Positions 2,270 to 53,702 of a stretch of DNA of 64,000 nt are shown here, one piece after another. Both the position numbers and the translations under genes were made by a program. The stretch's first letter is position 1; every line of letters begins with the position of its first letter. The notes under the pieces are model-generated. The model worked only from the letters and a program-made list of their open reading frames with translations, was not told where the DNA came from and searched no databases. The stretch covers positions 20,963-84,962 of the forward strand of contig CAZINP010000002.1 of assembly GCA_964540635.1 (NCBI GenBank), in the 5' to 3' direction. The DNA comes from an uncultured Gammaproteobacteria bacterium. GTDB taxonomy: Bacteria; Patescibacteriota; Patescibacteriia; Buchananbacterales; UBA6539.

Positions 2270-2294
2270 TGCATTAATTCATAAAAATAAAACC

Positions 2295-2690
2295 ATGAAA
2301 ATTAACATCAAGTGGACAAACATTGAAAATAATCAAGAGTTGGAAAAATTTATTGACGAGAGAATAGGCGAATTAAAAAAATATTTGCCCGAGCGCACTG
2401 AGCCGATTGATGTCAGAGTTGAAATCGGACGCACCACCTTTCATCATCAATCGGGTGATATTTACCATGCGGTTTGTGATTTGCGTTTGCCGGGCAAGGT
2501 TTTAAGGGCTCAGGCTGACAGGGCGGATTTAAATCAAGCCATTACTGAGGTTAAAGAAGAATTGCAAGGCAAAATAAAAAATTATAAAGAAGCGAATGTT
2601 GCTAAAAATCGTCGCATGCAAAGATTGTGGAAGGCAATTAAAAATTCTTCACCGATGGAGTGGGGAAAAGGTAAATTTATTAAAAAATAA
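2295..2690 (+). CDS. hpf: ribosome hibernation promoting factor / RaiA (S30EA family)
   Basis: 'MKINIKWTNIENNQELEKFIDERIGELKKY...' matches the RaiA/HPF fold signature. The start is moved to the ATG at 2295 to avoid overlap with the rnhA stop; the tracked ORF starts at 2250. Confidence 0.7.
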   Translation: MKINIKWTNIENNQELEKFIDERIGELKKYLPERTEPIDVRVEIGRTTFHHQSGDIYHAVCDLRLPGKVLRAQADRADLNQAITEVKEELQGKIKNYKEANVAKNRRMQRLWKAIKNSSPMEWGKGKFIKK

Positions 2691-2699
2691 TCAAAAAAT

Positions 2700-3335
2700 A
2701 TGATTTGGAAAAATTTTCCTTACCCGCTCAGGGGGATGATAATTTTTGCAGCTTTCTTTTTAGTTGTTAATTTCGTGCCTCAGGCTTCATTTATTCTGAT
2801 GTTGCCTTATTTTCTTATTTCGATGCCATTATATTTTTTTCTATGGGCCCTTTCTTCAATAACAAATATACAACCGAACGATTCTTATTTTATTCATGAG
2901 GGCTTACTCTTTTTTTATTTTTTAATAATCGGAGCGGTTGCGGGTTTAATCTATGGGAAATTAAAGAGGAGAAGAATTAAAATTGAAAATGAGAATAGAA
3001 TCACTTGGTTTCGAAAATTTCCTATTTGGTTTAGGGCTTTGATTATTACTTGGATTATTTCAATTATACTTATCCTACCAGTTTTTGCTTTGTGGTCATG
3101 CGTCGGTTTAACTTGTCTGGGGGTCGGTATTTATATGATGCCATCACTTATTCTCTCAATGCCGGTCCTTGGGTTATTCAGCTTGGTAATAAAGGATTTC
3201 TCACTTGAAAGCAACCCACCAATGATTATGTTTTTTGCTTTTATTCAATTTTTATATTTTACGGTTTTCGGACTTATTTTAGGCGTGATTATTCAGAAAT
3301 ATAAAGAGAGAAAATTAAATAATAGCAAACAATAA
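2700..3335 (+). CDS. hypothetical polytopic membrane protein
   Basis: Multiple hydrophobic segments and no recognisable catalytic motif. Confidence 0.5.
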   Translation: MIWKNFPYPLRGMIIFAAFFLVVNFVPQASFILMLPYFLISMPLYFFLWALSSITNIQPNDSYFIHEGLLFFYFLIIGAVAGLIYGKLKRRRIKIENENRITWFRKFPIWFRALIITWIISIILILPVFALWSCVGLTCLGVGIYMMPSLILSMPVLGLFSLVIKDFSLESNPPMIMFFAFIQFLYFTVFGLILGVIIQKYKERKLNNSKQ

Positions 3336-3338
3336 TTT

Positions 3339-3809
3339 ATGTTTGTTAAAATAAATAAAGCCGGCCTATTTTTATTTCTAAGTTTTTTGTTTTTTATATT
3401 TTACCAATTGTCAATGGCACTTGTTTCCTCGATTTCATTTTTAGATTCTTCTGGCTTGTTGGGTAAAATTTTGGTTTGTTTTTCACTTTTGATTTTAGCT
3501 TTTTCACCATTATCATTTATCTTGTTTTTGGTCTTTGCAGTTTTCATTAAAACCCCCAAAAAAGCCAACCTTGGTGATTCGAAACCAACCCCGATACAAC
3601 CTAGGAAAATCAATAAAGCAGGCCTATTTTTTATCTTGACGATCGTTTTTCTCTTGATTAATGGTTATTTTATTTCTCTTGGTTTGGCCCCGTCATCAGC
3701 GCCTAAGTTTTTGGATATTATACCTGCTTATTTCACCCCGATTATCCTTTTTGGCTTGCCAATTTCTTTTTGTTTATTTTTATACTTTTGGGCTTTCGGT
3801 AAAAAATAG
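3339..3809 (+). CDS. hypothetical membrane protein with internal duplication
   Basis: Two copies of an 'INKAGLF(L/F)...' hydrophobic module, at nt ~3346 and ~3605. Confidence 0.45.
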   Translation: MFVKINKAGLFLFLSFLFFIFYQLSMALVSSISFLDSSGLLGKILVCFSLLILAFSPLSFILFLVFAVFIKTPKKANLGDSKPTPIQPRKINKAGLFFILTIVFLLINGYFISLGLAPSSAPKFLDIIPAYFTPIILFGLPISFCLFLYFWAFGKK

Positions 3810-3842
3810 TTAAATTTTAATTAATCAACATAGCGCCATTTA

Positions 3843-4469
3843 TTGGCGCTTTTGTTGTATAAATTATTATTGTATATTATGTCTTTTAATTCAATAAAAA
3901 ATCAGCGTCGTTCAATTCGTTTGCCATATTTTGATTATTCCCAGGACGGTCAATATTTTATTACCATTTGTTCATTTGAAAAGAAAGATATTTTTTCACG
4001 GGTTGAAAATAATATATCAATTTTGAATAATTTTGGAAAGATTGTGGAGGAGGAGTTGTTAAATACCCAAAAAATTCGTAAAAACGTCATGATTGGTAAA
4101 TATGTTATCATGCCAAATCATATTCACGTAATTATCACAATTACCCGTGGTAGGGGCGCATTGCAATACGATTTTGCAACAAAAAATGGAAATCGTGGTA
4201 GGGGCGTATTGCAATACGCCCCTACGTTTGATTTTAATTACAAAAAAATATTTAAATCACCGTCGCAATCAATCGGTTCAATCGTGCGTGGTTTCAAATC
4301 AATTACCACCAAACGTATCAATATTATACGTCAAACCCCGGGCGTGCCGGTTTGGCAACGCAATTTTTACGAACACATTATTCGCGATGAAAATGATTAT
4401 CATCGTATTGTTGATTATATAAAATTAAACCCGGAAAAATGGCAATTTGACCGTAATTTCCGGAAATAA
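3843..4469 (+). CDS. REP-associated tyrosine transposase (RAYT, IS200/IS605 TnpA-like HuH)
   Basis: HuH motif 'MPNHIHVII' and C-terminal 'VWQRNFYEHIIRDENDYHRIVDYIKLNP' match the RAYT/IS200 family. Palindromic REPs lie inside and downstream of the ORF. The true start may be M13 (nt 3879). Confidence 0.75.
   Translation: MALLLYKLLLYIMSFNSIKNQRRSIRLPYFDYSQDGQYFITICSFEKKDIFSRVENNISILNNFGKIVEEELLNTQKIRKNVMIGKYVIMPNHIHVIITITRGRGALQYDFATKNGNRGRGVLQYAPTFDFNYKKIFKSPSQSIGSIVRGFKSITTKRINIIRQTPGVPVWQRNFYEHIIRDENDYHRIVDYIKLNPEKWQFDRNFRK
4146..4226. repeat. two tandem REP-like palindromic units inside the RAYT ORF (second is a perfect 28-bp palindrome GTAGGGGCGTATTGCAATACGCCCCTAC at 4198-4225)
   Basis: Direct reading: a self-complementary 28-mer beginning with GTAG; the first copy is degenerate on its right arm. 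Both are in-frame, encoding 'RGRGALQYDFATKNGNRGRGVLQYAPTF'. Confidence 0.8.
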
Positions 4470-4483
4470 AAAAACCGCCACAT

Positions 4484-4547
4484 CGGGCGATTAAATGTAT
4501 GGGCGAATTCATGTGCGGGCGTATTGCAATACGCCCCTACGCCCGAT
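4484..4547. repeat. REP-like element (nested palindrome; core GGGCGTATTGCAATACGCCC enclosed by ATCGGGCG...CGCCCGAT)
   Basis: Same core palindrome as at 4198-4225; an outer 8-bp inverted repeat flanks it. Confidence 0.75.
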
Positions 4548-4600
4548 ATTAATTATGGAAAATTTTTTAAATAATCCTAATAATTTTAACAAATAAAAAA

Positions 4601-4650
4601 ACGCCCTATCGGGCGAATTCATGTGCGGGCGTATTGCAATACGCCCCTAC
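4601..4650. repeat. REP-like element (second copy of the ~43-bp unit ATCGGGCGAATTCATGTGCGGGCGTATTGCAATACGCCCCTAC)
   Basis: Near-identical to 4487-4540, preceded by the small hairpin CGCCCtatcGGGCG; it abuts the stop codon of the minus-strand ABC-F gene. Confidence 0.75.
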
Positions 4651-6114
4651 CTAATATTTCGTTAAATCAATTGTCTCATCGATGCGAATCTCTTTCACAA
4701 AATCCGGCATATGCGAAACCATGATCATGGCACCGTCATAATCATGAATGGCTTTGGCAATTATTGGAATGTGGCGAAAATTTATGTGATTGGTCGGCTC
4801 GTCTAAAATCAATAATCCCGGTTTCATCAAAACCAAACGGGCAAACGACAATAAGCCTTTTTGGCCCTCGGATAAATCTTTAATTTTATTACCCATCAAA
4901 TTGCCGGTAATCAAAAATCCGGCGGCAACTGAACGCATTTTTTCTTCGTTTATCACTTCGTCGGTATTTAAAGCACAAGCGCTTTTTAAGGAATCAAAAA
5001 CCGTTTGTTCAAAATCAAGGTGGGAAAAATCTTGGCTGTAATAGCCAACCACGACTTTGGGTGTGATGGTGGCGCCGTGCGATTTGCCGGCTACCAAACT
5101 GCGCAAAAAAGTGCTTTTACCCGCGCCGTTTGGGCCGGAAACTAAAACATGCATTTTCTTACGCACGGTCAGCTCAATATCTTTTTGCAAAGGCTGGTGG
5201 CCATAAAAAGTCAAAACCGATTTAATTTCCACCACCGGGCCAATTACGTTTTGCGCTTCAATTTGAAAATCGCGAATTGTTTTATCTTCTTTTCTGACAT
5301 CAACCATGCTTTCTTCAAGTTCCTCGGTTTCTTCCTTGAGCTTTGAGGCCAGCTTTCTCATCTTACCGCCTTTATTGGCAAAGAAATTAACTTTTTCTTT
5401 TCTATCCTTGATTAATTTCTGGGCGCGGGCGTTTTCCATTCTTTCGCGCTCAATGCGCGCAGCAATTTCTTCTACCACGGTATAGTAATCGCCATTATAT
5501 GTTTCAATTTTGTGGGTATGAACATCAAGATAAATAACGCCGTCGGTAAAACAATTTAAAAAATCGGCATCATGAGAAATAACAATCACAGTTTTTTCGT
5601 ACATGCACAAAAAAGTAATCAAGTGGTCAATCCCGGCTTGATCTAAATTATTAGTCGGCTCATCCAAAAGCAAAATATCCGGATCTTGAATTAAGGCATA
5701 AGCCAAAAGTAAGCGCGCTTGCTGGCCGCCGCTCATCTCACCGACTTTTCTTTCAAAGGGAATGGACAGATTGACGGCATCCATAACCTTGCTAATTTTG
5801 CTTTTTAGATTACCCGGTACCGGGTTGAAAGCTTTGGCAAAGTATTGCTCCAAGGTCAAATCAAAGTCGGCTCTACCCAAGGTTTGAGGTGCCGCACCAA
5901 TGCTGGCGTTATTAGTAACTGAAATTTGGCCTTTTTTTGGTTTGAGCTGGCCCTGCATTAAAGCAAAAATTGTGCTTTTGCCGGCGCCGTTTTGGCCCAT
6001 CAAAGTGATTTTAGAACCACGGCGCACGCTAAAACAGGCCTCGTCCAAAAGCGGTTTATTGTATGAATATTCAAATGTGACCTCGTTAAAACGCAGGATG
6101 ACTTCTTCTGGCAT
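4651..6114 (-). CDS. ABC-F family ATPase (tandem ABC domains, no TMD)
   Basis: Two Walker A motifs ('GQNGAGKST', 'GPNGAGKST'), two signature motifs ('LSGGQ', 'LSEGQ') and two Walker B motifs ('LLLDEPTN', 'LILDEPTN'). Confidence 0.8.
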   Translation of the reverse strand: MPEEVILRFNEVTFEYSYNKPLLDEACFSVRRGSKITLMGQNGAGKSTIFALMQGQLKPKKGQISVTNNASIGAAPQTLGRADFDLTLEQYFAKAFNPVPGNLKSKISKVMDAVNLSIPFERKVGEMSGGQQARLLLAYALIQDPDILLLDEPTNNLDQAGIDHLITFLCMYEKTVIVISHDADFLNCFTDGVIYLDVHTHKIETYNGDYYTVVEEIAARIERERMENARAQKLIKDRKEKVNFFANKGGKMRKLASKLKEETEELEESMVDVRKEDKTIRDFQIEAQNVIGPVVEIKSVLTFYGHQPLQKDIELTVRKKMHVLVSGPNGAGKSTFLRSLVAGKSHGATITPKVVVGYYSQDFSHLDFEQTVFDSLKSACALNTDEVINEEKMRSVAAGFLITGNLMGNKIKDLSEGQKGLLSFARLVLMKPGLLILDEPTNHINFRHIPIIAKAIHDYDGAMIMVSHMPDFVKEIRIDETIDLTKY

Positions 6115-6293
6115 AAATAATGATAATTAGGCCATAATTTTGGCCCATTAGATAACGAGTATAACATAAAAGTATTGGAATGGCAAGGATTAGTGCGGGT
6201 TTTTAGTAAGCAGTTTTTGGATTGTCTTGATTTTGACAAAAGCGCTGAAAAATGGGAAAATTAGATTGAAATATTTAAAATATTTATCAATAT

Positions 6294-6920
6294 ATGAAAA
6301 TAAAAAAACAACTTTCACTTTTAATTTTTACTGGCATTTTTGTTCTATTTATAGTTATCTTAAGCGGATGTGTTTCCTTAAAGCCGAGATCGAATGTGTG
6401 CACAAAGGAAGCAAAAATTTGTCCCGACGGCACGACTGTTGGAAGAACCGGTCCAAATTGTGAATTTGCACCGTGTTTGTCTAAGGTTGTTTTGCCTGAA
6501 GGCTGGTTGAAATCTGCCAGTGAAAAGCAAGATTTAACCTTTTACTATCCGCAAGATTTTCCCGCGGTTTATATGCGTCCAAAGTCTTGGCCGCCGCAAA
6601 TTTTTGTTTCAACCAGCACATATAATTGTTTGCAAACAGATCCGACAAGCAGTCTGTCTAACCGGATTACCGAAAAGATTGTGAATTCAAATGCTTATTG
6701 CATTGAAGCGTTAAGTGATGGTGCGGCTGGCAGTATTTTCACAGAATATAAATTTTCTCGTGAAATTTCCGGAAGATTGATTGATTTATCTTTTACTCTG
6801 CAGGCTGTTCAGTGCTACAATTATGATGATCCAAGGCAATCGGAATGTATTGATGAGCGAGAAAATTTTGATTTGATTGAGTTAGTTGATAAAATTTTTC
6901 AAACAATAAATTTTGATTAA
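6294..6920 (+). CDS. hypothetical lipoprotein (Cys-rich N-terminal region)
   Basis: Signal peptide with lipobox 'ILSGC'; no catalytic motifs. Confidence 0.5.
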   Translation: MKIKKQLSLLIFTGIFVLFIVILSGCVSLKPRSNVCTKEAKICPDGTTVGRTGPNCEFAPCLSKVVLPEGWLKSASEKQDLTFYYPQDFPAVYMRPKSWPPQIFVSTSTYNCLQTDPTSSLSNRITEKIVNSNAYCIEALSDGAAGSIFTEYKFSREISGRLIDLSFTLQAVQCYNYDDPRQSECIDERENFDLIELVDKIFQTINFD

Positions 6921-6925
6921 AGATT

Positions 6926-7654
6926 ATGTCTAAAATAATTATCCTCGACACCGAAACCACCAGCCTGGACGAGACATCTCGTTTAGTTCAGTTAGCGTAT
7001 AAAAATTTAGAGAATGGCGATTTAGTGAACGAATTATTCAAGCCACCAACGCCGATTTCGTATGGGGCGATGGCAACTCATCATATTACCAACGAAATGG
7101 TGACAAATAAGCCGTTATTTGAGGGCAGTCAAACCAAGCAAAATCTCGAAAAACTTTTGGATTCCGGCGTAATGGTTGCTCACAATGCGTCTTTTGATAT
7201 TGGCATTTTAAAAAATGAAAATATTTTGGTTAAAAAGTTTATTGACACTTTACGCGTTTCTAAACATTTGATGTCGTGCGAACGCTATGATTTGCAATAT
7301 TTGCGATATTTGTTGAATTTTAATGTGCCGGAAGCCACAGCTCACGATGCTTTAGGCGATATTTTGATTCTAGAAAAGTTGTTTTTACATCTAAGCTCGT
7401 TAATTAAAGAAAAATTATCGTTAACAAATGAAGATCAGATTATTGAAAAAATGATTGAATTAACCAATGAGCCGATTTTGCTTAACAAAATTAATTTTGG
7501 TAAATATAAAGGCAAAACTTTTGCTGAAATAAATCAGCTTGACCCCGGTTATTTAACCTGGTTATACAACAGTGAATCCAGCAAAAAAGAACGTGAACAA
7601 AATGAAGAGTTAATTTATACTCTCAAAAAACATTTATATTTGGATAAAGCCTAG
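6926..7654 (+). CDS. DEDDh 3'-5' exonuclease (DnaQ-like) with C-terminal KYKGKTF/DPGYLTWL domain
   Basis: Exo I 'ILDTETTSLD', Exo II 'AHNASFDIGIL' and Exo III 'HDALGD'; C-terminal domain like the Exo X C-terminal/DUF3820. Confidence 0.75.
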   Translation: MSKIIILDTETTSLDETSRLVQLAYKNLENGDLVNELFKPPTPISYGAMATHHITNEMVTNKPLFEGSQTKQNLEKLLDSGVMVAHNASFDIGILKNENILVKKFIDTLRVSKHLMSCERYDLQYLRYLLNFNVPEATAHDALGDILILEKLFLHLSSLIKEKLSLTNEDQIIEKMIELTNEPILLNKINFGKYKGKTFAEINQLDPGYLTWLYNSESSKKEREQNEELIYTLKKHLYLDKA

Positions 7655-7679
7655 TTTAATTTATCTTTAGACTAAAAAT

Positions 7680-8078
7680 ATGTACGAAACCGTCGCCTGG
7701 TATCAAAGTTTAACCAAGCCTTTTTGGGCGCCACCAAGTTGGCTTTTTGGTCCGGTTTGGACTTTTTTGTATTTAATCATTGCTTTTAGTTTTGGCGCAG
7801 TTTTGCAAAAAACGATTTCAAAAAAAATTTCTTGGGTAATTGCCTTGCCCTTTGGTTTAAACATTTTTTTTAATCTTATTTTTTCACCAATTCAATTTGG
7901 TTTGCAAAATAACTTATTGGCGGCCATTGATATAATTTTAGTTCTAGCTACTTTAATTTGGGCGATGGTGGTAATTTGGCCAAAGATGCGTTGGGTTGCC
8001 TTGGTTAATATTCCTTATTTAGTTTGGGTTTGCTTTGCTACCATTTTGCAATTAACCGTTACATATTTAAATTTTTAA
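7680..8078 (+). CDS. tspO: TspO/MBR family tryptophan-rich sensory protein (short form)
   Basis: 'WYQSLTKPFWAPPSWLFGPVWTFLY' matches the TspO consensus (WY..L.KP.W.PP...F..VW..LY). Confidence 0.7.
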   Translation: MYETVAWYQSLTKPFWAPPSWLFGPVWTFLYLIIAFSFGAVLQKTISKKISWVIALPFGLNIFFNLIFSPIQFGLQNNLLAAIDIILVLATLIWAMVVIWPKMRWVALVNIPYLVWVCFATILQLTVTYLNF

Positions 8079-8082
8079 TTTT

Positions 8083-8478
8083 ATGTTTTTAAGATTGTAT
8101 TTTATTGCCCTGCCGATCGCCTTGGTTTTTGATATGATTTGGCTTGGCTTTATTTCAAGAAGCTTTTATCAATCCGAACTTGGTTATTTGATGAAAAGCA
8201 ATGTAAATTGGACGGCGGCCATATTGTTTTATTTATTTTTTGTGGCGGCCCTGATCTTTTTTGTCGTTGATCCGGCCGTAGTAAAAGGCTCTTGGTTTAA
8301 TGCTTTGCTTTTTGGCGCATTTTTTGGGTTTATTTGCTATGCCACTTACGATTTAACCAATCAAGCAACTATCAAGGATTGGCCATTATTAGTGACGATT
8401 GTTGACTTGGCTTGGGGAACTTTCTTTTCCGCCATTGTCAGCTTAACTACATATTTTATATATCAAAAGTTTTTTTAA
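8083..8478 (+). CDS. hypothetical membrane protein (possibly DUF2177-like)
   Basis: Four predicted TM segments; co-operonic with tspO (5-nt gap). Confidence 0.4.
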   Translation: MFLRLYFIALPIALVFDMIWLGFISRSFYQSELGYLMKSNVNWTAAILFYLFFVAALIFFVVDPAVVKGSWFNALLFGAFFGFICYATYDLTNQATIKDWPLLVTIVDLAWGTFFSAIVSLTTYFIYQKFF

Positions 8479-8486
8479 GATAAAAA

Positions 8487-10013
8487 ATGGCCCTAACTGC
8501 TTCCAAATTATACGATTACACCCAATGTCCGCATCGCGTTTGGCGGGATTTATATGGACCCATGTCCGAAAAAAGCGAAGAGTCAAATCCCTTTGTTGAG
8601 CTATTGTGGGAAAGGGGGATTAAATACGAAGAAAAAGTAATCAGTGGTTTGGGAGATTTTCTTAATTTGCGCGGCGTGCCACAAAAGGAAAATAAAAAAC
8701 AAACGCTTCAGGCTATGTCTAACGGTGTTTCTTTGATTTATCAAGGTGTAATTGAGTATGATGGTTTGTTGGGCATACCTGATTTACTTAAACGTCAGCC
8801 GGATAGTACATATGTTCCCATTGAAATTAAATCCGGCATGGGCCGCGAAGGCACAGGGGATGATGAAAGCGAAGACGAAGGAAAATTAAAAAAACATTAC
8901 GCCATTCAGCTTGGGTTGTATTTGGAAGTTTTAGCCGGTATGGGTTTTTCCAAAAATCATGTTGGCTATATTTTGGACGGCCACGGAAAAACGGTTGAGT
9001 ATAATTTGGATCAGCCTATGGGAGCGAGGTTAAGACAGACTTTTTGGGAATACTACCAACAAGGCAGAGATAATGTTAAATTATTGCAATCAAACGAGGC
9101 AAAAAACGATCCGGCACTTTCGGGAATTTGCAAACTTTGTCCGTGGTATCAAAGTTGTAAAAAATGGGTTGAAAAAAATGAAGATCCAACCGGTCTGTTT
9201 TATGTCGGCCGAAGTAAGCGAGATTTGCTTAATCAGGAGTTGAATATAAGGCATATTGGCGATATTTTACTTCTTGACCCAAAAGAAATCCTGGCGCAAA
9301 AGAAAAAAGATAAAAATTTTATTAAAGGTTTAGGCGAAAAAACTTTAAATAAAATTATTGACAGAGCGCGAGTTTTAAAAGTCAAACAAAAGCCGGTTGT
9401 TTATGAAAAGATTGATTTTCCCAAAGTCTCGTACGAATTATTTTTTGACATTGAAGATGACCCGACTCAAGAATTCGTTTATTTACACGGCGTTTATGAG
9501 CGAAGCAAAAACGGCGAAAGATTTTTAGATTTTACCGCCAAGGAAGTCAGTCCAAAAGCTGAGGCTGCTGCCTGGAAAGATTTTTGGGATTATATTCGTT
9601 CGTTGCCCCAGAACGATTTTGCCGTTTATTATTATTCGGCCCATGAAAAAAACACTTATAAGAGAATGCAAAAAACCTACCCTGAAATTATTTCAGAAAA
9701 GGAATTGGAAAACTTTTTTGCCAATCCAAATGTGATTGACTTGTATACCAATGTTGTTTTGACTAAAACTGATTGGCCGCTTAGCAGTTATTCTATAAAA
9801 GCTATTGCCCAATATTTAGGTTTTAATTGGCGCGACGAAACGCCCTCCGGCGCTTTATCAATTCAGTGGTTTAATGATTATCTAGAAAAAAATGATCCGA
9901 AAATTTTAGAAAGAATTTTGTTGTATAATGAAGATGACTGCAAAGCCACAATGGTGGTTAAAGATGCAATTCAAAATATTTCTGATAAACAATATTTAAC
10001 TTTTCAAATATGA
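8487..10013 (+). CDS. RecB-family (PD-(D/E)XK) nuclease, TM0106-like, with C-terminal RNase-H-like domain
   Basis: N-terminus 'LYDYTQCPHRVWRD' plus internal Cys cluster 'CKLCPWYQSC'; C-terminus 'FFDIEDDPTQEFVYLHGV...YYYSAHEKNTY' is exonuclease/RNase H-like. Confidence 0.5.
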   Translation: MALTASKLYDYTQCPHRVWRDLYGPMSEKSEESNPFVELLWERGIKYEEKVISGLGDFLNLRGVPQKENKKQTLQAMSNGVSLIYQGVIEYDGLLGIPDLLKRQPDSTYVPIEIKSGMGREGTGDDESEDEGKLKKHYAIQLGLYLEVLAGMGFSKNHVGYILDGHGKTVEYNLDQPMGARLRQTFWEYYQQGRDNVKLLQSNEAKNDPALSGICKLCPWYQSCKKWVEKNEDPTGLFYVGRSKRDLLNQELNIRHIGDILLLDPKEILAQKKKDKNFIKGLGEKTLNKIIDRARVLKVKQKPVVYEKIDFPKVSYELFFDIEDDPTQEFVYLHGVYERSKNGERFLDFTAKEVSPKAEAAAWKDFWDYIRSLPQNDFAVYYYSAHEKNTYKRMQKTYPEIISEKELENFFANPNVIDLYTNVVLTKTDWPLSSYSIKAIAQYLGFNWRDETPSGALSIQWFNDYLEKNDPKILERILLYNEDDCKATMVVKDAIQNISDKQYLTFQI

Positions 10014-10696
10014 AAAAAGTTGCAATATTTGATATTGATGGAACAATTTTTCGTTCAAGCTTGGTCATTGAGGCGACTGAAGCGCTAATTAATGCCGGAA
10101 TTTTTCCTGCGTCATGTCGAAAAATTTATCTTCCTGCCAAAGAAAGCTGGCGCAATCGTCAGGGATCATACGAAAATTATATTCGTGCCGTTGTCTCGGC
10201 TTTTGAAAATAACATCAAAGGCGTAAAGCGATCAGATTTTTTGCGAATAGTACACTTGGTAATTGATCGCAACAAAGATTTACTTTATCGCTATACTCGC
10301 GATTTAGTTTTAGATTTGAAAAAGCAAGATTATTTTTTGTTAGCCATTTCCCATTCGCCGTTTGAATTGGTTAAAGAGTTTTCGGAAAATTTAGGTTTTG
10401 ATAAAATTTATGGTCGCATTTATGAAGTCGGCCCAAAGAAGAAATATACCAGTCAAGTTTTGTATCCCCAATTGATAGATAATAAATTTTTAATCGTCAG
10501 ACGTGCTTTGGAAAAAGAAAATTTAAGCCTTAAGGGTTCTATCGGTGTGGGGGACACAGAATCTGATATTTCTTTTTTAAAAAAAGTCAGCCGACCAATT
10601 TGTTTTAATCCCAATAAAAAACTTTATAATTACGCCAAACGCGTTGGCTGGTCAATTGTGGTTGAGCGAAAAGATGTGATTTATAAAATCAAATAG
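10010..10696 (+). CDS. HAD-superfamily hydrolase (subfamily IB-like phosphatase)
   Basis: Motif I 'VAIFDIDGTIF' (DxDGT); motif IV 'GVGDTESD'. Confidence 0.7.
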   Translation: MKKVAIFDIDGTIFRSSLVIEATEALINAGIFPASCRKIYLPAKESWRNRQGSYENYIRAVVSAFENNIKGVKRSDFLRIVHLVIDRNKDLLYRYTRDLVLDLKKQDYFLLAISHSPFELVKEFSENLGFDKIYGRIYEVGPKKKYTSQVLYPQLIDNKFLIVRRALEKENLSLKGSIGVGDTESDISFLKKVSRPICFNPNKKLYNYAKRVGWSIVVERKDVIYKIK

Positions 10697-10786
10697 TTTT
10701 TAACTTGACAATGAATTTTAAAGAGTTATAATGTATTTAGATGTAAATATAATTTTAACAACATAGCGCCTCGGGCGTTTTTATTT

Positions 10787-11363
10787 ATGAAAAAATATCT
10801 ATATTATTGCAATTTTATTATTTTTATTAACTGGCTGTAGTGATGGCAGTAGCTATATTCCTGAAAAACAGGAAGTGAAAGTAAACTTAGTATCCGATTC
10901 CGACGGTTGGAAAACATATACCAATAGGGAATGGGGTATTAAATTTAGGTTTGAGGATAAAGAAAATCAATATAAAGCCTATTCAGAAGACTCTTTTATT
11001 GATGTGCTTTATTTAAATGGATTAAGTGGGCCGCTTTATTTGCACAGAGGCAGCTTGAGTGATTTTTCTCCTGTGGCAATTGATCTTGAGGAGTATATAA
11101 CAAAGTATGCTTGGCGAGAAATTGAAAATGCAATTAAGCTTGAAGAATATAAGAAATTTGAAATAAATAAAAATATTAATGCTTATGAATTAGATATTTT
11201 ATCTAGGGGCGTACAACATCCAATTAATGTTCCCGATACATATTCAATTTTTACAATTTATTATTTGGAATATACAAAATTTAATACATTTGATTATATA
11301 AGTATTTTTGGTGAAACGGAACTGGTTGATCGGGTGTTAAAAAGTTTTGAATATATAGACTGA
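10787..11363 (+). pseudogene. frameshifted paralogue of the lipoprotein at 11404 (signal peptide/lipobox in +1 frame relative to the ATG)
   Basis: The ATG at 10787 gives 'MKKYLYYCNFIIFINWL*'. The next frame reads '...IYIIAILLFLLTGCSDGSSYIPEKQEVKVNLVSDSDGW...', which continues into ORF 10875..11363 (GTG start). The paralogue at 11404 has the same 'MKKYL' start, a lipobox, and a 'W.TY.N.E(Y/W)G..F' motif. Confidence 0.55.
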
Positions 11364-11403
11364 ATTATTATAAAAACTATCAACATAGCGCTTGATACAC
11401 TTT

Positions 11404-11985
11404 ATGAAAAAATATCTATTTATAACGATTTTATCGCTGATTTTAAGCGGTTGCCAGGGCGGGCAAGTGCCGGCCGAAACTGTACCTGATCTTTCGCTGA
11501 ATACGGTAACAACAACCGAAGAAATTGATACTTCGGATTGGCTGACGTACAAAAATGAAGAATACGGATTTGAGTTTAAGTATCCAAAAGAGTGGAATAT
11601 TAATTTTGAAAATTATACTAATATAAATTCTTTATTCAATTTAAATTTAGTATATTTGGGTCCTACGCAAATTACTGATACAGAAATTTACGATGGCGCA
11701 AGGCTGACTATAAATTTGCTTAGCTTAAAAGAATATAATATTGAATTTTATATTAACAGTTTCGATGCAGGGCTGGATTTTAGAGATGAGGAATTTTACG
11801 GTCATAAATCAAGTGTTTATAGTGGAAAGTTAAAGTATGGCGACATAGTAATTGATAACAGTAAAAGAAAAATAATATACATAAGTGATGAAAAGTACAT
11901 TTATCGATTAGAGACAGTGTCTTTTGGTGATAATGGTAACCAATATGATCAAATAATTAATTATATCCTAGCAGGTATTCCTTAA
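11404..11985 (+). CDS. secreted lipoprotein (paralogue family; 'WLTYKNEEYGFEFKYPKEW' motif)
   Basis: Signal peptide 'MKKYLFITILSLILSGC' (lipobox). Start set at ATG 11404; the tracked ORF starts at 11392. Confidence 0.6.
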   Translation: MKKYLFITILSLILSGCQGGQVPAETVPDLSLNTVTTTEEIDTSDWLTYKNEEYGFEFKYPKEWNINFENYTNINSLFNLNLVYLGPTQITDTEIYDGARLTINLLSLKEYNIEFYINSFDAGLDFRDEEFYGHKSSVYSGKLKYGDIVIDNSKRKIIYISDEKYIYRLETVSFGDNGNQYDQIINYILAGIP

Positions 11986-12108
11986 TTAGACGGAAAAAAA
12001 TTCCGATTTTCTAAAAAATAATCAACATAGCGTCGTGCTTATCAGTTAAGCAAGGCGCTATTTTTTATAGAAGGTTCTTTGACAATCCAACAAACAAGGA
12101 GATGAGAC

Positions 12109-15100
12109 ATGTTTAGAATTACGTTTTGTTGCTTTTTGTTCATGTGTTCGGCTTATTCAGAAAAGCCAATGCTCAAACTCCCGTTTTCAGCTGGTCAAAT
12201 TTGGTCAATCACTGTTGGTTACGGTGGTAGCGATTATCATCAAAATGATGATTTTTATGCGCTTGATTTCAATCTTCCTGGAGATTCTGATCTGGGACAG
12301 CCAATCTTGGCAGCGGCATCGGGAGAAATTTTCTACGCTGGTTGGATGAATGGCTACGGTTGGACCGTGATCATTGATCATGGCTATGGTTACAAAACCA
12401 GATATGCGCATTTGAATTTAGCGCCTACCGTATCCGGTAGAATTTTACAGGGTCAAGAGATTGGAAAATGTGGTTCGTCGGGTGGGACAAGTACCGGTCC
12501 ACATCTTCATTTTGTGATGTATTTTAATGGTGGTCCTGAAATCCCAGAGCCAATGTCGGGTTATGCAAATTTTCAGGTTGGTGGTCGATATGTTTCTGAT
12601 AACTTTTTTTATAGTCAGGAGTTAGTTATCGGCTACCATCCAGATGGCTCTATCTCTCAGCCAATCCTTGACTACTACAGTCGTCCGGAACAAAACCTTG
12701 GTCAGCCGTTTGATAACGGCGGTGGACTTTACGTTCATGACTGGTCAAGCCAAGACGGCACGACCAAAATTACGCTTCAGGATTTTTGCTTAGGCAGTCC
12801 TGGGGTTGGCACACATTGCGCCATTGTTGAGTCCGTTGATGGAAACGCATACTCGCTGAAAGGTGCTTTTCGCTGGTACTACATGCAAAAAACCTACGAC
12901 GGCATGCCTTTTGATGCCGTTAAACTGCTTGGACCGCCAATTAACGATGGCGGAGCCACAGTTTACTATCCGATTTTGCCTGACGGAACCTTTGATTGTG
13001 TTGCCGGAAAGACCAGATGCTATGTCACCCAGAGCTTTGCCAATGGGTATGACTTTGTCTGGGACGGTAGCAAGGTTTGGTTGGTTCAAAATGTTTGCGG
13101 CCTGAATAAGGCGTTGAAATCGGTGGATTTTGACTGTAATGGTCAGCCTTACGAATTTCAGATTGCCGGCAGTTTGCCGGCAGAACCGGGATGCATTACG
13201 CTTCACGGTGCGGCCAATTGCTCTACCGGCGTTTATTTGGAGTGGTCAGATACTTTGTATCAAAGCCAGTTCTATCGTTTGTGGTCAAACGGCCAGCTGA
13301 GGGCAAATGTCGGGGCCAGGGGATACAGTGATTATCCGCTTTGGCCTTCAACAACCTATCGCTATCAGGTGGAAGCAATAACTTTTTCGGGGATGTCGCT
13401 GGGTTTCAGCAATGAAATCGTGGTGACCACACCGGAAAGTGAGCAGGAACCCGGTGGCGATTTGGGCGAGCCCTTTCCAGCGCGAATTGAGGCAACTTTG
13501 TCCGAATGCCTTTGGGTGTGGGGACAAACCTCTTCGCAAAACGGGATTTATTTGACGGCTCAAGTTTTTGACCAATACGGTCAACTGATGCCAAACGAAG
13601 AGGTGGTTTTTACCTCATCAAAGCCTTTGGTTTTTTGCGTCAATTTTGATTCCGGTTGGTGCAGTGCTGATGATGTTGGTCAAGCTGAAGTCTGGGCTCA
13701 GCACCGCGATTGGAGCGGCATTCGCTCGCAGAGAATCGCGGTCACTGTGGTCAACCAACTTCCGCCCGAGCCGATTGAACCGGATGTTTATGAATCATCA
13801 GGCTTGAAGCTTGAAAACTTCAACCTTTTGAGCCAAGGGCCGTTTGTAGAGTATTGTGGGTTGTTTTATTCGGTTCTGATTAGCAACCCGACCGATCAGC
13901 CCATTACTTTTTATGGGCCTCAGCTTTACCATTTTGACTTGAACGGCAAAACGGTTGGGGATTCGCCCTACAGCATTATTCCCACCACATTGCAGCCGGG
14001 TCAGTCGCAAGGTTTTGCTGACAGCGGCGGTCAAATTGGAGCGGCCGGAGAGTATTACTTGATGGCTATGGTCAACTTTGATGGACAATATGCTTCGCCG
14101 CGATATGTGATTGACGATTGTGCGGCTGGCATCAGCAGTAAGATTTACGTCAAATCTGTTTCTCAGGACGATTTAAAGGCAGACCTACAGGCCTTTGATC
14201 TCTACCTGGATAACTCTGCTCCATCAACCAATGATTTGATTGGCCTTAACGCTCGAGTTTTTAACTTCGGGCGAAAAAAAGTTGACGCGTCCTTTTCGGT
14301 CAGTATTGAGATTCGTGGAATCGGCAGTCAGTTCTGTGAAGTCGCCGGACTTGAGCCAAACAGCTATGAGTCCTGCAATATGTTCTTTGGCCCTTTGCCG
14401 GCAGGAGCATATACGGCCGATCTGATTGTTGATTCGCAAAACTCCATTCTGGAGGAAAACGAAGGCAATAATGTGGCACATTTGCCTTTTACGGTTTCGT
14501 CAATGAATCTGCCGCCGGTTATTATTACCGATTTGGCAGATAAAACAGTGGCGCAAGGCTCCAAGGTGATTTTTGAGGTTTTAGCCACGATTGCCGATCC
14601 GCCGAATGATCAAACTGATTTGCCAATAAGCTATCAGTGGCAGCATAACGGGCAGGAGGTGATTGCCAACAATTCTTCCCAGTTAATTCTGGAAAATGTC
14701 GGTTTTGACCAGGCAGGAAGCTATGCCTGCGTGGTTACAACCGCCAATGGTTTTGCTGCATCTAGCCGCACGGCCATTCTCACGGTTTTGCCAAAATTGA
14801 AAATCACCTCTCAGCCACAAGTTCTCACCTTGTTTCAGGGTCAAGCTCTTGAGAATTGTTTGCAGGCGGTTGGTGCTGGAACCTTGTCGTACCAGTGGTA
14901 CAAAGATGGCAAGATCATCTCCGGACAGAATCAACCTTGCTTGAAAATCGCATCGGTTCTTACTTCCGACTCCGGGTTCTATCATTGTCGGGTGACTGAT
15001 GTGGCTGCTGGTTTAACGCAGCGACTAAACACAAAAGTTGTTCAGTTGTCGGTGCGTCAAGTTGGTTCTGGTGCGCCGGCCGTTTATCTGGAGTATGTGG

Positions 15101-16302
15101 ACGGTGAGAGTGTCATCACGGGACGTCTTCAGGCAAATCAATGGGCATTGGGCGGGCTTCTTTTGAATCCCTACTCTTTGCCGGCCAAAAAGACGTATGC
15201 TGATGTCCAAAATCTGGGCTTACGATTTACGCAGAGTAAGGAGCCCAAGGTTTGTCTTGATGACGGAGAGCAAATTTTGCTTGATGAAAACGGCAATTCG
15301 CTTAAAGACAATCTTTACGACGGAATTGGTTTTGACGCCACGCGCAGTTTTGAGGTCAACCTTTTCGTTGGCAGGACATTGTACTGCAGGCTAAGGCCCT
15401 ATCTGATCATTTCCGGCAAGGTTTATTACCTTAATCTGGAGGTGGTCAAGATTTATTTGAACGGGAACGAACTTGCTGTTTCAAACGGCCAAGCCTTACT
15501 CTATTTGGCCACCGTCAACCCGCAGTTGCAGATAACACTGCAACCAATTGATCGAACCGTTAAAACTGGCGCCAATTTGTATTTCAAGGTCGCTGCCGTC
15601 GGCGATCCGGTGATTACCTACGCCTGGTTTAAGGACGGTCAGGCTGTGCCCAGCGGAAATAAGGCAATTTTGCGTCTATTGGGCGTGTGTTTGGATGCAG
15701 CAGGCGAGTACTCGTGTTTGGTCAAGACTTCGGCCGGAAAAGAAGTTTGGTCATTGCCGGCCAGGTTGACTGTTTACCAGAAGTTGCAGATCCTAAGTCA
15801 GCCCGTTTCCGTTGCGCTTAGGGAAGGTGATTCTGGCTTTTTTGAAGTTGAGGCAATTGGGCAAGGAGAGCTTTTCTATCAATGGAGAAAAGACGGGAAA
15901 AAAATTCTTGGCGCAAATCAGTCTTGTCTTGAGTTTGAGTCTGTGGCAAAATCTCAGATTGGCAGCTATACCTGTTTAGTTTCAGACAGTTGTCCAGGAA
16001 CGGCTCAGCGGTTGCTGAGTCAAGCGGCTGATTTGTCAATTTTGCCTGAAATGCAAGTTGTGGTTTGCGTCGAAAAGATTGATTCGGAGTTTATTGAGTG
16101 CCAGCCATCGGCTCGCGCCAACCCGGGTCAGACCGTTCATTTTTCTTGCCAGGTGCAAAACGGCATCGCGCCATTTTCCTATCAATGGTTTTTCAATGGC
16201 GATGTATTGCCGGGTGAGATTGGATCAACTTTGGTCAAAACCGAGGTTTCAAACGACGAAGAGGGCGCTTATAATTGCCAAGTGACTGATTCGTCTGGTT
16301 GA
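12109..16302 (+). CDS. giant secreted multidomain protein: N-terminal M23 (LytM-type) metallopeptidase, two CARDB-like domains, about five Ig-like (I-set-like) domains
   Basis: M23 motifs 'HQNDDFYALDF' (HxxxD) and 'GPHLHFV' (HxH). CARDB-like 'ENEGNNVAH'. Repeated Ig hallmarks 'YQW(Y/F/R)KDG' plus 'YxC' ('SYACVV', 'FYHCRV', 'EYSCLV', 'SYTCLV', 'AYNCQV'). Strong SD 'AAGGAG' 8 nt upstream. GC is visibly higher than in the neighbouring genes. Confidence 0.75.
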   Translation: MFRITFCCFLFMCSAYSEKPMLKLPFSAGQIWSITVGYGGSDYHQNDDFYALDFNLPGDSDLGQPILAAASGEIFYAGWMNGYGWTVIIDHGYGYKTRYAHLNLAPTVSGRILQGQEIGKCGSSGGTSTGPHLHFVMYFNGGPEIPEPMSGYANFQVGGRYVSDNFFYSQELVIGYHPDGSISQPILDYYSRPEQNLGQPFDNGGGLYVHDWSSQDGTTKITLQDFCLGSPGVGTHCAIVESVDGNAYSLKGAFRWYYMQKTYDGMPFDAVKLLGPPINDGGATVYYPILPDGTFDCVAGKTRCYVTQSFANGYDFVWDGSKVWLVQNVCGLNKALKSVDFDCNGQPYEFQIAGSLPAEPGCITLHGAANCSTGVYLEWSDTLYQSQFYRLWSNGQLRANVGARGYSDYPLWPSTTYRYQVEAITFSGMSLGFSNEIVVTTPESEQEPGGDLGEPFPARIEATLSECLWVWGQTSSQNGIYLTAQVFDQYGQLMPNEEVVFTSSKPLVFCVNFDSGWCSADDVGQAEVWAQHRDWSGIRSQRIAVTVVNQLPPEPIEPDVYESSGLKLENFNLLSQGPFVEYCGLFYSVLISNPTDQPITFYGPQLYHFDLNGKTVGDSPYSIIPTTLQPGQSQGFADSGGQIGAAGEYYLMAMVNFDGQYASPRYVIDDCAAGISSKIYVKSVSQDDLKADLQAFDLYLDNSAPSTNDLIGLNARVFNFGRKKVDASFSVSIEIRGIGSQFCEVAGLEPNSYESCNMFFGPLPAGAYTADLIVDSQNSILEENEGNNVAHLPFTVSSMNLPPVIITDLADKTVAQGSKVIFEVLATIADPPNDQTDLPISYQWQHNGQEVIANNSSQLILENVGFDQAGSYACVVTTANGFAASSRTAILTVLPKLKITSQPQVLTLFQGQALENCLQAVGAGTLSYQWYKDGKIISGQNQPCLKIASVLTSDSGFYHCRVTDVAAGLTQRLNTKVVQLSVRQVGSGAPAVYLEYVDGESVITGRLQANQWALGGLLLNPYSLPAKKTYADVQNLGLRFTQSKEPKVCLDDGEQILLDENGNSLKDNLYDGIGFDATRSFEVNLFVGRTLYCRLRPYLIISGKVYYLNLEVVKIYLNGNELAVSNGQALLYLATVNPQLQITLQPIDRTVKTGANLYFKVAAVGDPVITYAWFKDGQAVPSGNKAILRLLGVCLDAAGEYSCLVKTSAGKEVWSLPARLTVYQKLQILSQPVSVALREGDSGFFEVEAIGQGELFYQWRKDGKKILGANQSCLEFESVAKSQIGSYTCLVSDSCPGTAQRLLSQAADLSILPEMQVVVCVEKIDSEFIECQPSARANPGQTVHFSCQVQNGIAPFSYQWFFNGDVLPGEIGSTLVKTEVSNDEEGAYNCQVTDSSG

Positions 16303-16322
16303 ACCAAAAAATTGTTCATTGT

Positions 16323-16357
16323 CTTTTTGCGGCTGCCGCTGGTGGCCGCTTTTTTTA
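16323..16357 (+). terminator. rho-independent terminator of the giant gene
   Basis: GCGGCtgccgctggtgGCCGC followed by TTTTTTT. Confidence 0.6.
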
Positions 16358-16365
16358 TAAAAAAA

Positions 16366-16604
16366 AGACCGCCAGCGAAAACACGGTGGTCTTCTGGTTG
16401 TGGAGCGGCCTTAGAGGAAGACTACGTTATCCGGTTTAGAGCCGGCGCGTTGTCTTAATGCCGCTTGTTCAAGCGATTTCGGGTATAGGCACCCGTAAGT
16501 GAATTGAGGGATTCGCTCGCCGCTACTACCCTCGGCTTGCCACAACTTTAACTGGCGTAGTCCCGTAAGCTCATGGCTGGATAGGGACCGGATTCCAGCT
16601 CGCT
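16366..16604 (-). ncRNA. unclassified GC-rich structured small RNA candidate (~240 nt), delimited by its own promoter and terminator
   Basis: On the minus strand there is a -35 TTGACA, a 17-nt spacer and a -10 TAAGAT (plus-strand coordinates 16611-16639), and a downstream hairpin AGACCACC..GGCGGTCT plus T9 (plus 16359-16393). The interval is far more GC-rich than the flanks and has many local hairpins. It is non-coding; only a random 60-aa ORF is present. Confidence 0.45.
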
Positions 16605-16610
16605 GAGAAA

Positions 16611-16639
16611 ATCTTATCTTTTAGAAATTAATTTGTCAA
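16611..16639 (-). promoter_or_regulatory. sigma70-like promoter (TTGACA-17-TAAGAT) driving the unclassified sRNA
   Basis: The reverse complement of plus 16634-16639 is TTGACA, and of 16611-16616 is TAAGAT; the spacer is 17 nt. Confidence 0.5.
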
Positions 16640-16645
16640 ACAAAA

Positions 16646-16672
16646 AAATATCTCAAAGAGATATTCTTTTTT
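16646..16672. terminator. bidirectional intrinsic terminator at the 3' end of rnpB
   Basis: AATATCTCaaaGAGATATT with an A-run on one side and a T-run on the other. Confidence 0.55.
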
Positions 16673-17049
16673 GTCCAAGTAAACTAGTAAGCCGAATTCT
16701 GTTTTTTGGTTTGCACCAAAATGATGATCATCTATCTGGGATCAATGTTGCCATTGACCTCAAGCTGCCTACCTAATTTGGCATTGCACCTGGCAGGGGT
16801 TTACCACGCAGACCGTCACCGGTCATTCGCGCGTGAGCTCTTACCTCACGTTTTCAACCTTACCGTTCTCGCAAGCGAGACTTAGGCGGTATGTTTTCTG
16901 TTGCACTTGCCCTAAGCTTGGCAAAAATTCAGAAGTCTTAAGAACTTCTGGCTTTTTGTTACTCTCGGTTCCCGTTAGGAACTGCCTTTTTGTGGTGTTC
17001 GGACTTTCCTCTCCGACGAGTCGGAGCGATCATCTTGTTTACTTGGACA
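16671..17049 (-). ncRNA. rnpB: RNase P RNA, bacterial type A
   Basis: The reverse complement contains P4 strands 'GAGGAAAGTCCGAAC' (5') and 'ACAGAATTCGGCTTAC' (3'). It has a 'GGTAAGAGCTCAC...GTGGTAAACCCC' block (E. coli: GGTAAGAGCGCACC...GGTAAACTCC). P1 pairing is TGTCCAAGTAAAC / GTTTACTTGGACA. Length is ~379 nt. Confidence 0.85.
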
Positions 17050-17161
17050 ATGGGAATAATATCATAAAATGAGTAAAAAGTCAATATTGAGCTTGCTTGA
17101 CTAATGTTTTAAATATTGAAATAATATGTGCTTTTTGTTATGATTAAATCTGAAATTACAT

Positions 17162-18565
17162 ATGAAGAGATCCGAATTAGCCTTAACGGCAGTTAAGCCG
17201 CCACTTGATTATTTTAACTTGATTTTGGCGGCTATTGTTGCATATATTTTACGTTACCAGCCATTTACTCAAAAAATTAGGCCGGTGGTTTTTGATTTAC
17301 CTTTTTCGGATTACATATCAATTGCTTTGCCTATTGCCATTGGTTGGATTGTAATTTTTGTAATTTCCGGCCTTTATTCCGTTGGCGGGTTTAAGTCATT
17401 GCGTGAAGAGTTGGCCAGAGTTTTTGTTGCCTGTTCGGCCGGCTTGGCCTTAGTTTTAGCGGTAATGGTTTTTACTCGTTTTTTATTTGATTCCCGTTTT
17501 ATTATTTTAACTTCCTGGATTCTGGCTTTTATTTTTGTAAGTTTGGGGAGAATAATTCTTCAGATTATAAAAAAACAATCATATAAATTTGGTATTGGTG
17601 TTCATCGCTTGGCCTTAATTGGCGATAGTAAAATTGCTCAATTGCTAAATGACGAATTTACCAGTCGACCGACCTTGGGTTATCGAGTAGTTTATCAGGC
17701 CGAAGAGTTTAGCGATACGGTTCAAAGCGAACTTTTTGAATTGAAGAAAAATGATGGCATTGATGAGTTGATCCAAATTAGACCAAATATGTGCGGCCAG
17801 AGAACCATTGATTTAATCAATTTTGCCGAGGAAAATCACTTTGACTTTAAGTATACTGCCGATTTATTAGGTGCACATTTGATAAATCTGGAAGTTAGCA
17901 CTTATGCCGGGCTGCCAATAATAGAAGTGAAGCGCACGCCACTTGATGGCTGGGGGAGGATTCACAAAAGAATTTTTGATATTGCCGTTTCCGGTGTCTT
18001 AATTATTTTATTTTCACCAATAATGTTGATCACTGCCTTGGCGGTTAAATTAACTTCGCCCGGTCCGATACTTTTTAAATATAAGCGTATTGGTCAAAAT
18101 GGTAAGGCGTTTACTTATTTTAAATTCAGATCAATGATTGATAAAGCGCATGAGCTGCGTTTTGATGAAAAGTTTGTCAGCCAGCATGATAATTTACGAG
18201 CCGGCAGTCCGATGATGAAATTTGCCAATGATCCCAGGATTACACCAGTCGGACGATTTATCAGGCGTTTTTCGATTGACGAATTAACGGAATTATTTTT
18301 AGTTTTTGGCGGAAAGATGAGTTTGGTTGGCCCCAGGCCGCATGAGGTTGAGGAGGTAGAGAAGTACAAGCATCACCACAAAAAGGTTTTAACCATCAAA
18401 CCCGGTATGTCTGGTTTGGCGCAAATTTCCGGTCGTTCAGATCTTAATTTTGAAGATGAAGTTAAATTAGATATTTATTATATTGAAAATTGGTCGTTGG
18501 GTTTAGACTTACAGATATTATTCAAAACCCCAATGGCGGTTTTAAGAAGGAGAAATGCAGAATGA
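17162..18565 (+). CDS. undecaprenyl-phosphate sugar phosphotransferase (bacterial sugar transferase, WbaP/CpsE-like)
   Basis: N-terminal TM block; C-terminal 'KRIFDIAVSGVLIILFSPIMLITALAVKLTSPGPILFKYKRIGQNGKAFTYFKFRSM' and 'MSLVGPRP'. Confidence 0.8.
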   Translation: MKRSELALTAVKPPLDYFNLILAAIVAYILRYQPFTQKIRPVVFDLPFSDYISIALPIAIGWIVIFVISGLYSVGGFKSLREELARVFVACSAGLALVLAVMVFTRFLFDSRFIILTSWILAFIFVSLGRIILQIIKKQSYKFGIGVHRLALIGDSKIAQLLNDEFTSRPTLGYRVVYQAEEFSDTVQSELFELKKNDGIDELIQIRPNMCGQRTIDLINFAEENHFDFKYTADLLGAHLINLEVSTYAGLPIIEVKRTPLDGWGRIHKRIFDIAVSGVLIILFSPIMLITALAVKLTSPGPILFKYKRIGQNGKAFTYFKFRSMIDKAHELRFDEKFVSQHDNLRAGSPMMKFANDPRITPVGRFIRRFSIDELTELFLVFGGKMSLVGPRPHEVEEVEKYKHHHKKVLTIKPGMSGLAQISGRSDLNFEDEVKLDIYYIENWSLGLDLQILFKTPMAVLRRRNAE

Positions 18566-53689: not shown

Positions 53690-53702
53690 TCGTACTTTAT
53701 TT

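Follow-up and report, generated by a model that had tools for sequence, protein, structure and literature searches.

The closest described systems differ in kind. The leaders of ribosomal-protein operons (L1, L10, L20, S8, S15) mimic ribosomal RNA (rRNA) binding sites and act in cis; protein-sequestering small RNAs (sRNAs), such as 6S RNA and CsrB/RsmZ, imitate the natural ligand of a protein; and species-specific "orphan" sRNA genes occur on horizontally acquired islands, where we know of no conserved rRNA module. The locus considered here is a candidate RNA gene of about 240 nucleotides (nt) on the minus strand of a 64,000-nt stretch of contig CAZINP010000002.1 (hereafter, the window); it lies between the terminator of a giant protein gene and rnpB. 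We report that one hairpin of this RNA is a copy of a hairpin of the large-subunit (LSU) rRNA, and we discuss what the RNA may be.

The hairpin, H2 (16506-16533, minus strand), reads GAGGG-UAGUAGCGGCGAGCGAAU-CCCUC and reproduces the domain-I hairpin at positions 236-263 of the Rfam LSU model (RF02541). Its core, AGUAGCGGCGAGCGAA, is identical to E. coli 23S rRNA 241-256 at 16 of 16 positions, and its 22-mer is identical to locus L117 at 22 of 22; the 17-nt sequence of the internal and apical loops, UAGUAGCGGCGAGCGAA, is the same in H2 and in the LSU hairpin. The Rfam consensus of the segment is <<<<<-----<<_____>>---->>>>>, and H2 has the same layout (5 base pairs, 5 nt, 2 base pairs, a 5-nt loop, 4 nt, 5 base pairs). 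Every pair in it is standard and every unpaired base is the LSU consensus base; the closing stem differs in sequence yet pairs, as in real LSU rRNAs. By our own calculation, about 1e-4 shared 16-mers with E. coli 23S rRNA are expected by chance; chance falls far short of explaining an exact 17-22-nt copy of an rRNA loop within the proper structural context. The loop (AGUA/GAA) presumably has the arrangement of a sarcin-ricin-type (bulged-G) module, and we take the segment to be conserved in LSU rRNA across domains.

The database searches agree with this identification. When the 71 nt around H2 were compared with Rfam, LSU_rRNA_bacteria was the sole match among 4227 families (16506-16533 on the minus strand, model positions 236-263); its score of 7.8 bits (E = 0.65) is what a local match of 28 nt to a model of 2925 positions should give. 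A home-made profile of 15 LSU sequences found H2 only in the whole window (E = 0.006). Because the six degenerate blocks used in the search for homologues of the RNA (see below) had not covered H2, metagenomes were also scanned with RRTAGTARYGGCGARYGAATYY, a degenerate, transition-tolerant 22-nt pattern made from H2. It matched at least 120 contigs, as compared to about 15 chance matches expected by our own estimate. LSU landmark sequences were present in 110 of the 120 contigs listed, and the remaining 10 were either LSU genes of eukaryotes or organelles or chance matches to coding sequence. Rfam placed LSU rRNA genes in six of the seven contigs scanned, with the H2 match about 210 nt from the 5' end. 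The core sequence of H2 was also found in papers on the sequencing of insect 28S rRNA, in line with conservation across domains. A separate observation concerns the metagenome LSU loci themselves: the LSU genes of L012 and L025 have group I introns confirmed by Rfam, and L012, L025, L044, L066 and L079 share the near-identical core CCCUCAGAGACUACACGCC ... GAAGAUAUAGUCC, in some cases at two sites.

The sequence-only reading of this locus had named four inverted repeats in the segment, all of which are present; it overlooked the rRNA identity of the GAGGG...CCCTC hairpin, which is the most informative feature. It is because of the LSU hairpin that the segment looked like a housekeeping RNA by eye.

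The body of the RNA (16394-16606, minus strand; 213 nt, 55% guanine plus cytosine, GC) is predicted to fold into a 5' hairpin domain and a three-way-junction domain. The former is hairpin H1 (RNA nt 7-57; 16550-16600). The latter (16397-16546) holds H2, H3 (16480-16495; CGGGU-GCCUAU-ACCCG) and the long hairpin H5 (16419-16458; apical stem-loop CCGG-CUCUAAA-CCGG), and is closed by GUUGUGG (16546-16540) pairing with CCACAAC (16403-16397), listed as repeat I15. The predicted 255-nt transcript, terminator included, has a folding energy of -86.4 kcal/mol (z = -2.98 relative to dinucleotide shuffles), while the plus strand folds less well relative to its shuffles (z = -1.93). The body without the terminator has a minimum free energy of -71.3 kcal/mol and a well-defined ensemble; the minimum-free-energy, centroid and maximum-expected-accuracy structures all give two independent domains. 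Two perfect 7-nt complementarities link both strands of H1 to adjacent segments of H5 (RNA nt 14-20 with 172-178 and 45-51 with 181-187, i.e., 16593-16587 with 16435-16429 and 16562-16556 with 16426-16420 in the window). A pseudoknot or an alternative fold could be involved; the number of such 7-mers is near that expected by chance. As to base-pairing targets or repeats of the RNA within the window, only chance-level 9-11-mers were found.

The segment is framed by consensus-level signals. A sigma-70-type promoter-like site, TTGACA-17-TAAGAT, lies at 16639-16611 on the minus strand, as had been claimed; it matches the consensus at 10 of 12 positions, with a perfect -35 box and a 17-nt spacer, and the predicted start is near 16604-16602. 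The AT-rich promoter gives way to the GC-rich body exactly at this start. The intrinsic terminator (16360-16393, minus strand; repeat I11) comprises a hairpin at 16393-16368 followed by U8. The hairpin is strong (-15.1 kcal/mol, z = -3.7, none of 200 shuffles as good), and the terminator proposed earlier is thereby supported; the T9 given for it has to be corrected, since the run is 8 (7 in the related strain described below). A simple terminator scan missed this element because its 11-nt loop exceeds the 8-nt loop limit. The giant gene has a terminator of its own (16329-16349, plus strand; element listed to 16356), back to back with this one, and an AT-rich terminator hairpin of rnpB (about 16642-16670, minus strand; repeat I4) lies between rnpB and the promoter of the candidate RNA, so that the giant gene, the candidate RNA and rnpB have one terminator each. 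The location of the segment between the giant gene's terminator and rnpB is thus confirmed, rnpB (16672-17045, minus strand; bacterial RNase P RNA class A, RF00010) being placed by Rfam at 220 bits.

No credible open reading frame (ORF) was found in the candidate RNA; the longest has 44 amino acids (aa) and a TTG start. The longest stop-free frame (69 aa) has no real relative among 1.84 billion protein representatives, its single match being repetitive and due to chance, and we reject a protein pseudogene for this reason. Judged by its sequence signals, the segment has the marks of an independent sRNA gene (its own promoter, a Rho-independent terminator, no ORF). The -35 box and its spacing, the body that begins at the predicted start, the strong terminator and the folding excess on the minus strand make it fairly probable, in our opinion, that this is a genuine independent RNA gene. 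The earlier description of it as an independent non-coding unit therefore appears acceptable at the level of such signals: the body begins at the predicted start, there are three terminators, and no frame is credible.

The composition of the region points to a foreign origin. The GC content of the RNA body is 0.549, compared to 0.371 for the window. The segment had been said to exceed the rest of the window by far in GC content; this is correct for the average but not for the giant gene (12109-16302, plus strand; 1397 aa, an M23 peptidase followed by CARDB and many Ig domains), which averages 0.476 and reaches the same 0.549 at 13280. The RNA thus does not stand alone but closes a GC-rich block of 4.5 kb. 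The GC content at third codon positions (GC3) is 0.48 in the giant gene overall and about 0.5 past its first 600 nt, versus 0.23-0.36 in the neighbouring genes. Because of GC and GC3, we regard the RNA and the giant gene, except for the 5' quarter of the latter, as one compositionally foreign block. The giant gene has a native-looking composition (GC3 0.36) in its first 600 nt, which encode the M23 domain, and a foreign one from about 12700 onward, which suggests that the gene is chimeric or partly transferred. No close relatives of the giant protein were found.

The host belongs to the candidate phyla radiation (CPR; Patescibacteria), and the best named relatives of the sugar-transferase gene at 17162-18565 are from Candidatus Buchananbacteria. 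The sole homologue of the RNA was found in the Logan contig L002, whose transferase is 98% identical and which has the same region at 99% identity. The RNA body of L002 has two substitutions, both in the unpaired linkers flanking H2, and the terminator tail is one U shorter (U7). Over 14161-17161, which takes in the giant-gene end, the RNA and rnpB, identity to L002 1-3000 is 99.4%; it drops to 95-96% in the transferase and the next gene (a glycosyltransferase), where the differences are mostly synonymous. Judging from this step in identity, 14161-17161 looks like a recent recombination or transfer tract that ends near the rnpB promoter. From the foreign composition and the strain-level distribution, horizontal transfer probably brought in the RNA along with the 3' part of the giant gene.

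More distant relatives lack the RNA. The gene order RecJ, RNase H, rnpB, transferase is found in L004, L128, L132 and L133; L003 has a different upstream gene. Further contigs (L005, L006, L129-L131, L134) carry the same proteins as these five distant relatives. A genome scan with the neighbouring transferase gave one locus and no synteny. In the homologue searches, relatives below about 75% identity could escape. The "new sRNA class" of the sequence-only reading is not supported as a class, since the RNA was found in one near-identical strain only, and the expectation of conservation at syntenic sites failed in the five relatives with 67-70% transferase identity. In general, the earlier observation is largely right, the identities proposed for the RNA are wrong, and the "class" is so far a single-lineage orphan.

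It is tempting to consider more of the RNA to be rRNA. A decayed or rearranged LSU pseudogene would be a "mini-23S" composed of 23S segments in circularly permuted order (E. coli 2574-2626, 225-264, 651-690 and 1323-1355). RNA nt 4-38 (in H1) align with L014 LSU 2605-2657 (E. coli 2574-2626) with 9/9 and 19/22 identities around a 19-nt deletion that removes the intervening hairpin, and this LSU site is the best one in 12 of 23 LSU genes; nt 103-144 (the H3 region) align with E. coli 651-690 at 27 of 41 positions; further resemblances were noted to E. coli 2556-2567, 417-426 and 1323-1355; and LSU-consistent windows are in excess over shuffles. However, with H2 masked and with jumps and circular order allowed, the chain alignment scores only z = 0.5-1.3 for E. 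coli and 2.6-2.9 for L014. H1 and H3 are in the top 3-6% of shuffles against two LSUs but fall short of significance with two others, H5 resembles nothing with which it was compared (LSUs included), and both nhmmer and the Rfam covariance model match the RNA to LSU at H2 alone. Since these other resemblances fail the shuffle controls, only H2, perhaps with some 10-20 flanking nt, is taken as rRNA-derived, and we consider the permuted pseudogene improbable. As a plain LSU rRNA gene or pseudogene the segment is rejected: it has no collinear 23S similarity over most of its length. The proposal of a divergent 6S RNA, signal recognition particle (SRP) RNA or transfer-messenger RNA (tmRNA) was reasonable for a GC-rich structured independent unit in an AT-rich CPR genome, the more so as an Rfam scan detected none of the three elsewhere in the window; the absence of the RNA from this site in the close relatives argues against it, though these could encode it elsewhere in their genomes. 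The Rfam scan that the sequence-only reading had recommended was run over 16250-16720 and, at E <= 10, gave no match to a known family; what it reported was the end of rnpB and noise caused by terminators. ARAGORN reported no transfer RNA (tRNA) or tmRNA gene, with implausible calls only when relaxed to 80% thresholds. These RNAs are rejected on their defining features and not on model scores alone. For tmRNA, neither the T-arm GGUUCGAnUCC nor the CTCCACCA motif is present on either strand, there is no CCA end, and ARAGORN reports no tag peptide, i.e., no Ala-Ala-stop tag frame. For SRP RNA, neither strand has AGCA, AGCAGC, GGAAGG or CC-GNAR-GG, so helix 8 is missing; the lack of diagnostic motifs of both RNAs had been stated correctly. 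For 6S RNA, the fold is two domains and not a rod, with no closing stem: the duplex of the first and last 40 nt (-16.0 kcal/mol) is no better than chance (shuffles -15.4 +/- 3.3). We find a divergent housekeeping RNA hardly credible. A tRNA-like reading (CUCUAAA as the anticodon loop with CUA, GCCGC-U-CCA as the acceptor end) was also rejected, as there is no D-arm or T-arm. A further rival is a remnant of a group I intron, or of another mobile RNA, from a CPR rRNA gene with some flanking exon sequence. Insertions abound in CPR 23S genes (PMC9297842), GACUACG (RNA nt 45-51) and CGUAGUC (nt 181-187) resemble R/S elements and could form P7, and a GIY-YIG ORF stands beside rnpB in L133 and L134. 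Against these stand the lack of an Intron_gpI (RF00028) match at E <= 10 and of any above-shuffle similarity to 12 stretches around S-element-like motifs of intron-bearing LSU loci; there is no room for P1-P2 or P4-P6 (32 nt where P4-P6 belongs), and the LSU hairpin is internal to the RNA and not flanking. Thus, the intron remnant is rejected for want of a covariance-model match, of similarity above shuffles and of a core of sufficient length, and its probability seems very low to us.

Our preferred explanation, to which as a whole we assign a probability of roughly 0.3, is a lineage-restricted, horizontally acquired sRNA that offers an rRNA hairpin as a decoy in trans. The RNA would have arrived with the 3' part of the giant surface-protein gene and would be made as a minus-strand transcript of about 240 nt with a promoter and a terminator of its own; it would fold into the 5' hairpin and the three-way junction, one arm of which is the LSU hairpin (E. 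coli 23S 241-256). H2 would then be displayed in trans and would bind, titrate or recruit a protein that recognises the 23S hairpin, through protein binding and not base-pairing; the partner may be a ribosomal protein, an assembly factor or a modification factor. We presume action in trans because no gene follows (beyond the terminator the minus strand is only the antisense of the giant gene) and no ribosomal-protein gene is present in the window. Mimicry would be the most economical functional reading of H2, although the decoy mechanism as such, with the hairpin offered to a 23S-hairpin-binding protein, is doubtful. A bolder version, unlikely in our view, is a mobile trans-acting rRNA mimic that sequesters or recruits a ribosomal protein or assembly factor of its own cell, of a host or of a competitor, and travels with the giant M23-peptidase/Ig surface protein in an episymbiotic CPR bacterium. 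A cis-acting ribosomal-protein leader was rejected: the terminator directly follows the RNA, and the window has no gene for such a protein to be regulated.

A number of observations weigh against this decoy sRNA, and some of them equally support its main rival, a non-functional relic. According to the latter, 210 nt of donor DNA were brought in with the giant gene, including an LSU rDNA scrap of about 30-45 nt and the donor's terminator; the promoter-like site is fortuitous in the native AT-rich spacer, and any transcript is noise. We consider this a serious possibility, of much the same likelihood as the decoy sRNA and at less than even odds. The giant gene and the segment share one foreign block, and the GC-richness and a part of the fold stability may stem from the foreign composition. 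Promoter-like sites are over-abundant in this AT-rich DNA (7 found versus 2.2 expected). The five relatives at 67-70% transferase identity (L003, L004, L128, L132, L133) have rnpB beside the transferase and no homologue of the RNA; nor was a homologue found with six degenerate 24-nt blocks of the RNA in JGI metagenomes and viral contigs, with four exact scans of viral sequences, or with BLAST against phages and plasmids. L002 is too similar to show constraint, and its two linker substitutions say little; with this 99% identical strain as the sole homologue, the structure has no covariation support. The window also contains no ribosomal-protein genes that might point to a partner. On the other hand, the relic does not explain well why the GC-rich body begins exactly at the start predicted from a perfect -35 box with 17-nt spacing, why a strong dedicated terminator stands in the correct orientation, why the RNA has a well-defined ensemble and folds better than dinucleotide shuffles (z about -3), or why the hairpin loop is intact to the base when nothing else is recognisably rRNA.

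Several features of the surroundings deserve mention in their own right. Compared with L004, L128, L132 and L133, the window carries an additional 14 kb or so of genes, which separate RNase H (1868-2269) from rnpB (span compared: 2250-16606). They comprise a hibernation factor, an ABC-F ATPase, an exonuclease, TspO, DUF2177, a RecB-like nuclease and a HAD hydrolase, as well as two unknown genes and the giant gene. In this span, a 208-aa ORF (3843-4469) has a sub-threshold match to an IS200-like Y1 transposase (E = 1e-4; 22.9 bits, cut-off 23). At the position of the candidate RNA, L128 has an ORF of about 85 aa (about 2000-2254, minus strand) with a promoter-like site and the Shine-Dalgarno sequence AAGGAGG, then about 200 nt of GC-rich sequence and a terminator. 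The rnpB gene is 480-540 nt long in the relatives (L004 2345-2881; L128 2385-2865; L133 2069-2565) versus 374 nt in the window, and hence carries insertions there; in L133 and L134 the ORF directly beside rnpB is an 85-aa one of the GIY-YIG (homing-endonuclease) type (L133 2569-2826). Mobile elements may be active at rnpB in CPR bacteria. Elsewhere in the window, there are two ClpB/ClpA-type AAA+ genes (28745-31498 and 58374-60989), the first of which has no Clp_N and only one strongly matching AAA module, and a TraG/VirD4-like coupling-protein homologue (53634-55661; TrwB_AAD_bind, TraG-D_C) with a treble-clef zinc finger in otherwise housekeeping surroundings.

The 23S hairpin within this RNA is real, a curiosity that also offers a testable lead. 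If the RNA is functional, it would be a case of rRNA mimicry on an independent transcript instead of an operon leader, in a group with unusual ribosomes, and the partner to seek would be concrete, namely, a binder of 23S positions 236-263. The ribosomes of CPR bacteria have no uL30 and frequently no uL1, bL9 or bL28, and insertions are numerous in the rRNA genes of this group (PMC9297842); nothing specific was found in the literature on rRNA-mimic sRNAs or split 23S rRNA in these bacteria. If the RNA is a relic, gene transfer has left a minor and unremarkable by-product here. Either way, its annotation as 6S RNA, SRP RNA or tmRNA is unwarranted.

In comparison with known systems, H2 shares the loop sequence and architecture of its LSU counterpart (E. 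coli 23S about 236-262, loop core 241-256) but is part of an otherwise unrelated RNA (about 210 nt) that has a promoter and a terminator to itself; it is distant from any rRNA gene, and its flanks are not convincingly LSU-like. The likeness to ribosomal-protein leaders consists in an rRNA-like hairpin outside rRNA that could bind a protein recognising the rRNA site; however, these leaders are upstream of the genes they regulate, whereas no gene follows the candidate RNA on its strand, and its copy is exact in sequence and not only structural. With 6S RNA and CsrB/RsmZ it has in common a stand-alone structured RNA and the proposed imitation of a ligand, but no relationship in sequence, structure or family. 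The "orphan" sRNAs of islands are similar in being promoter-to-terminator units between convergent genes, foreign in composition and restricted to strains; the candidate RNA differs from them in that it carries a conserved rRNA module.

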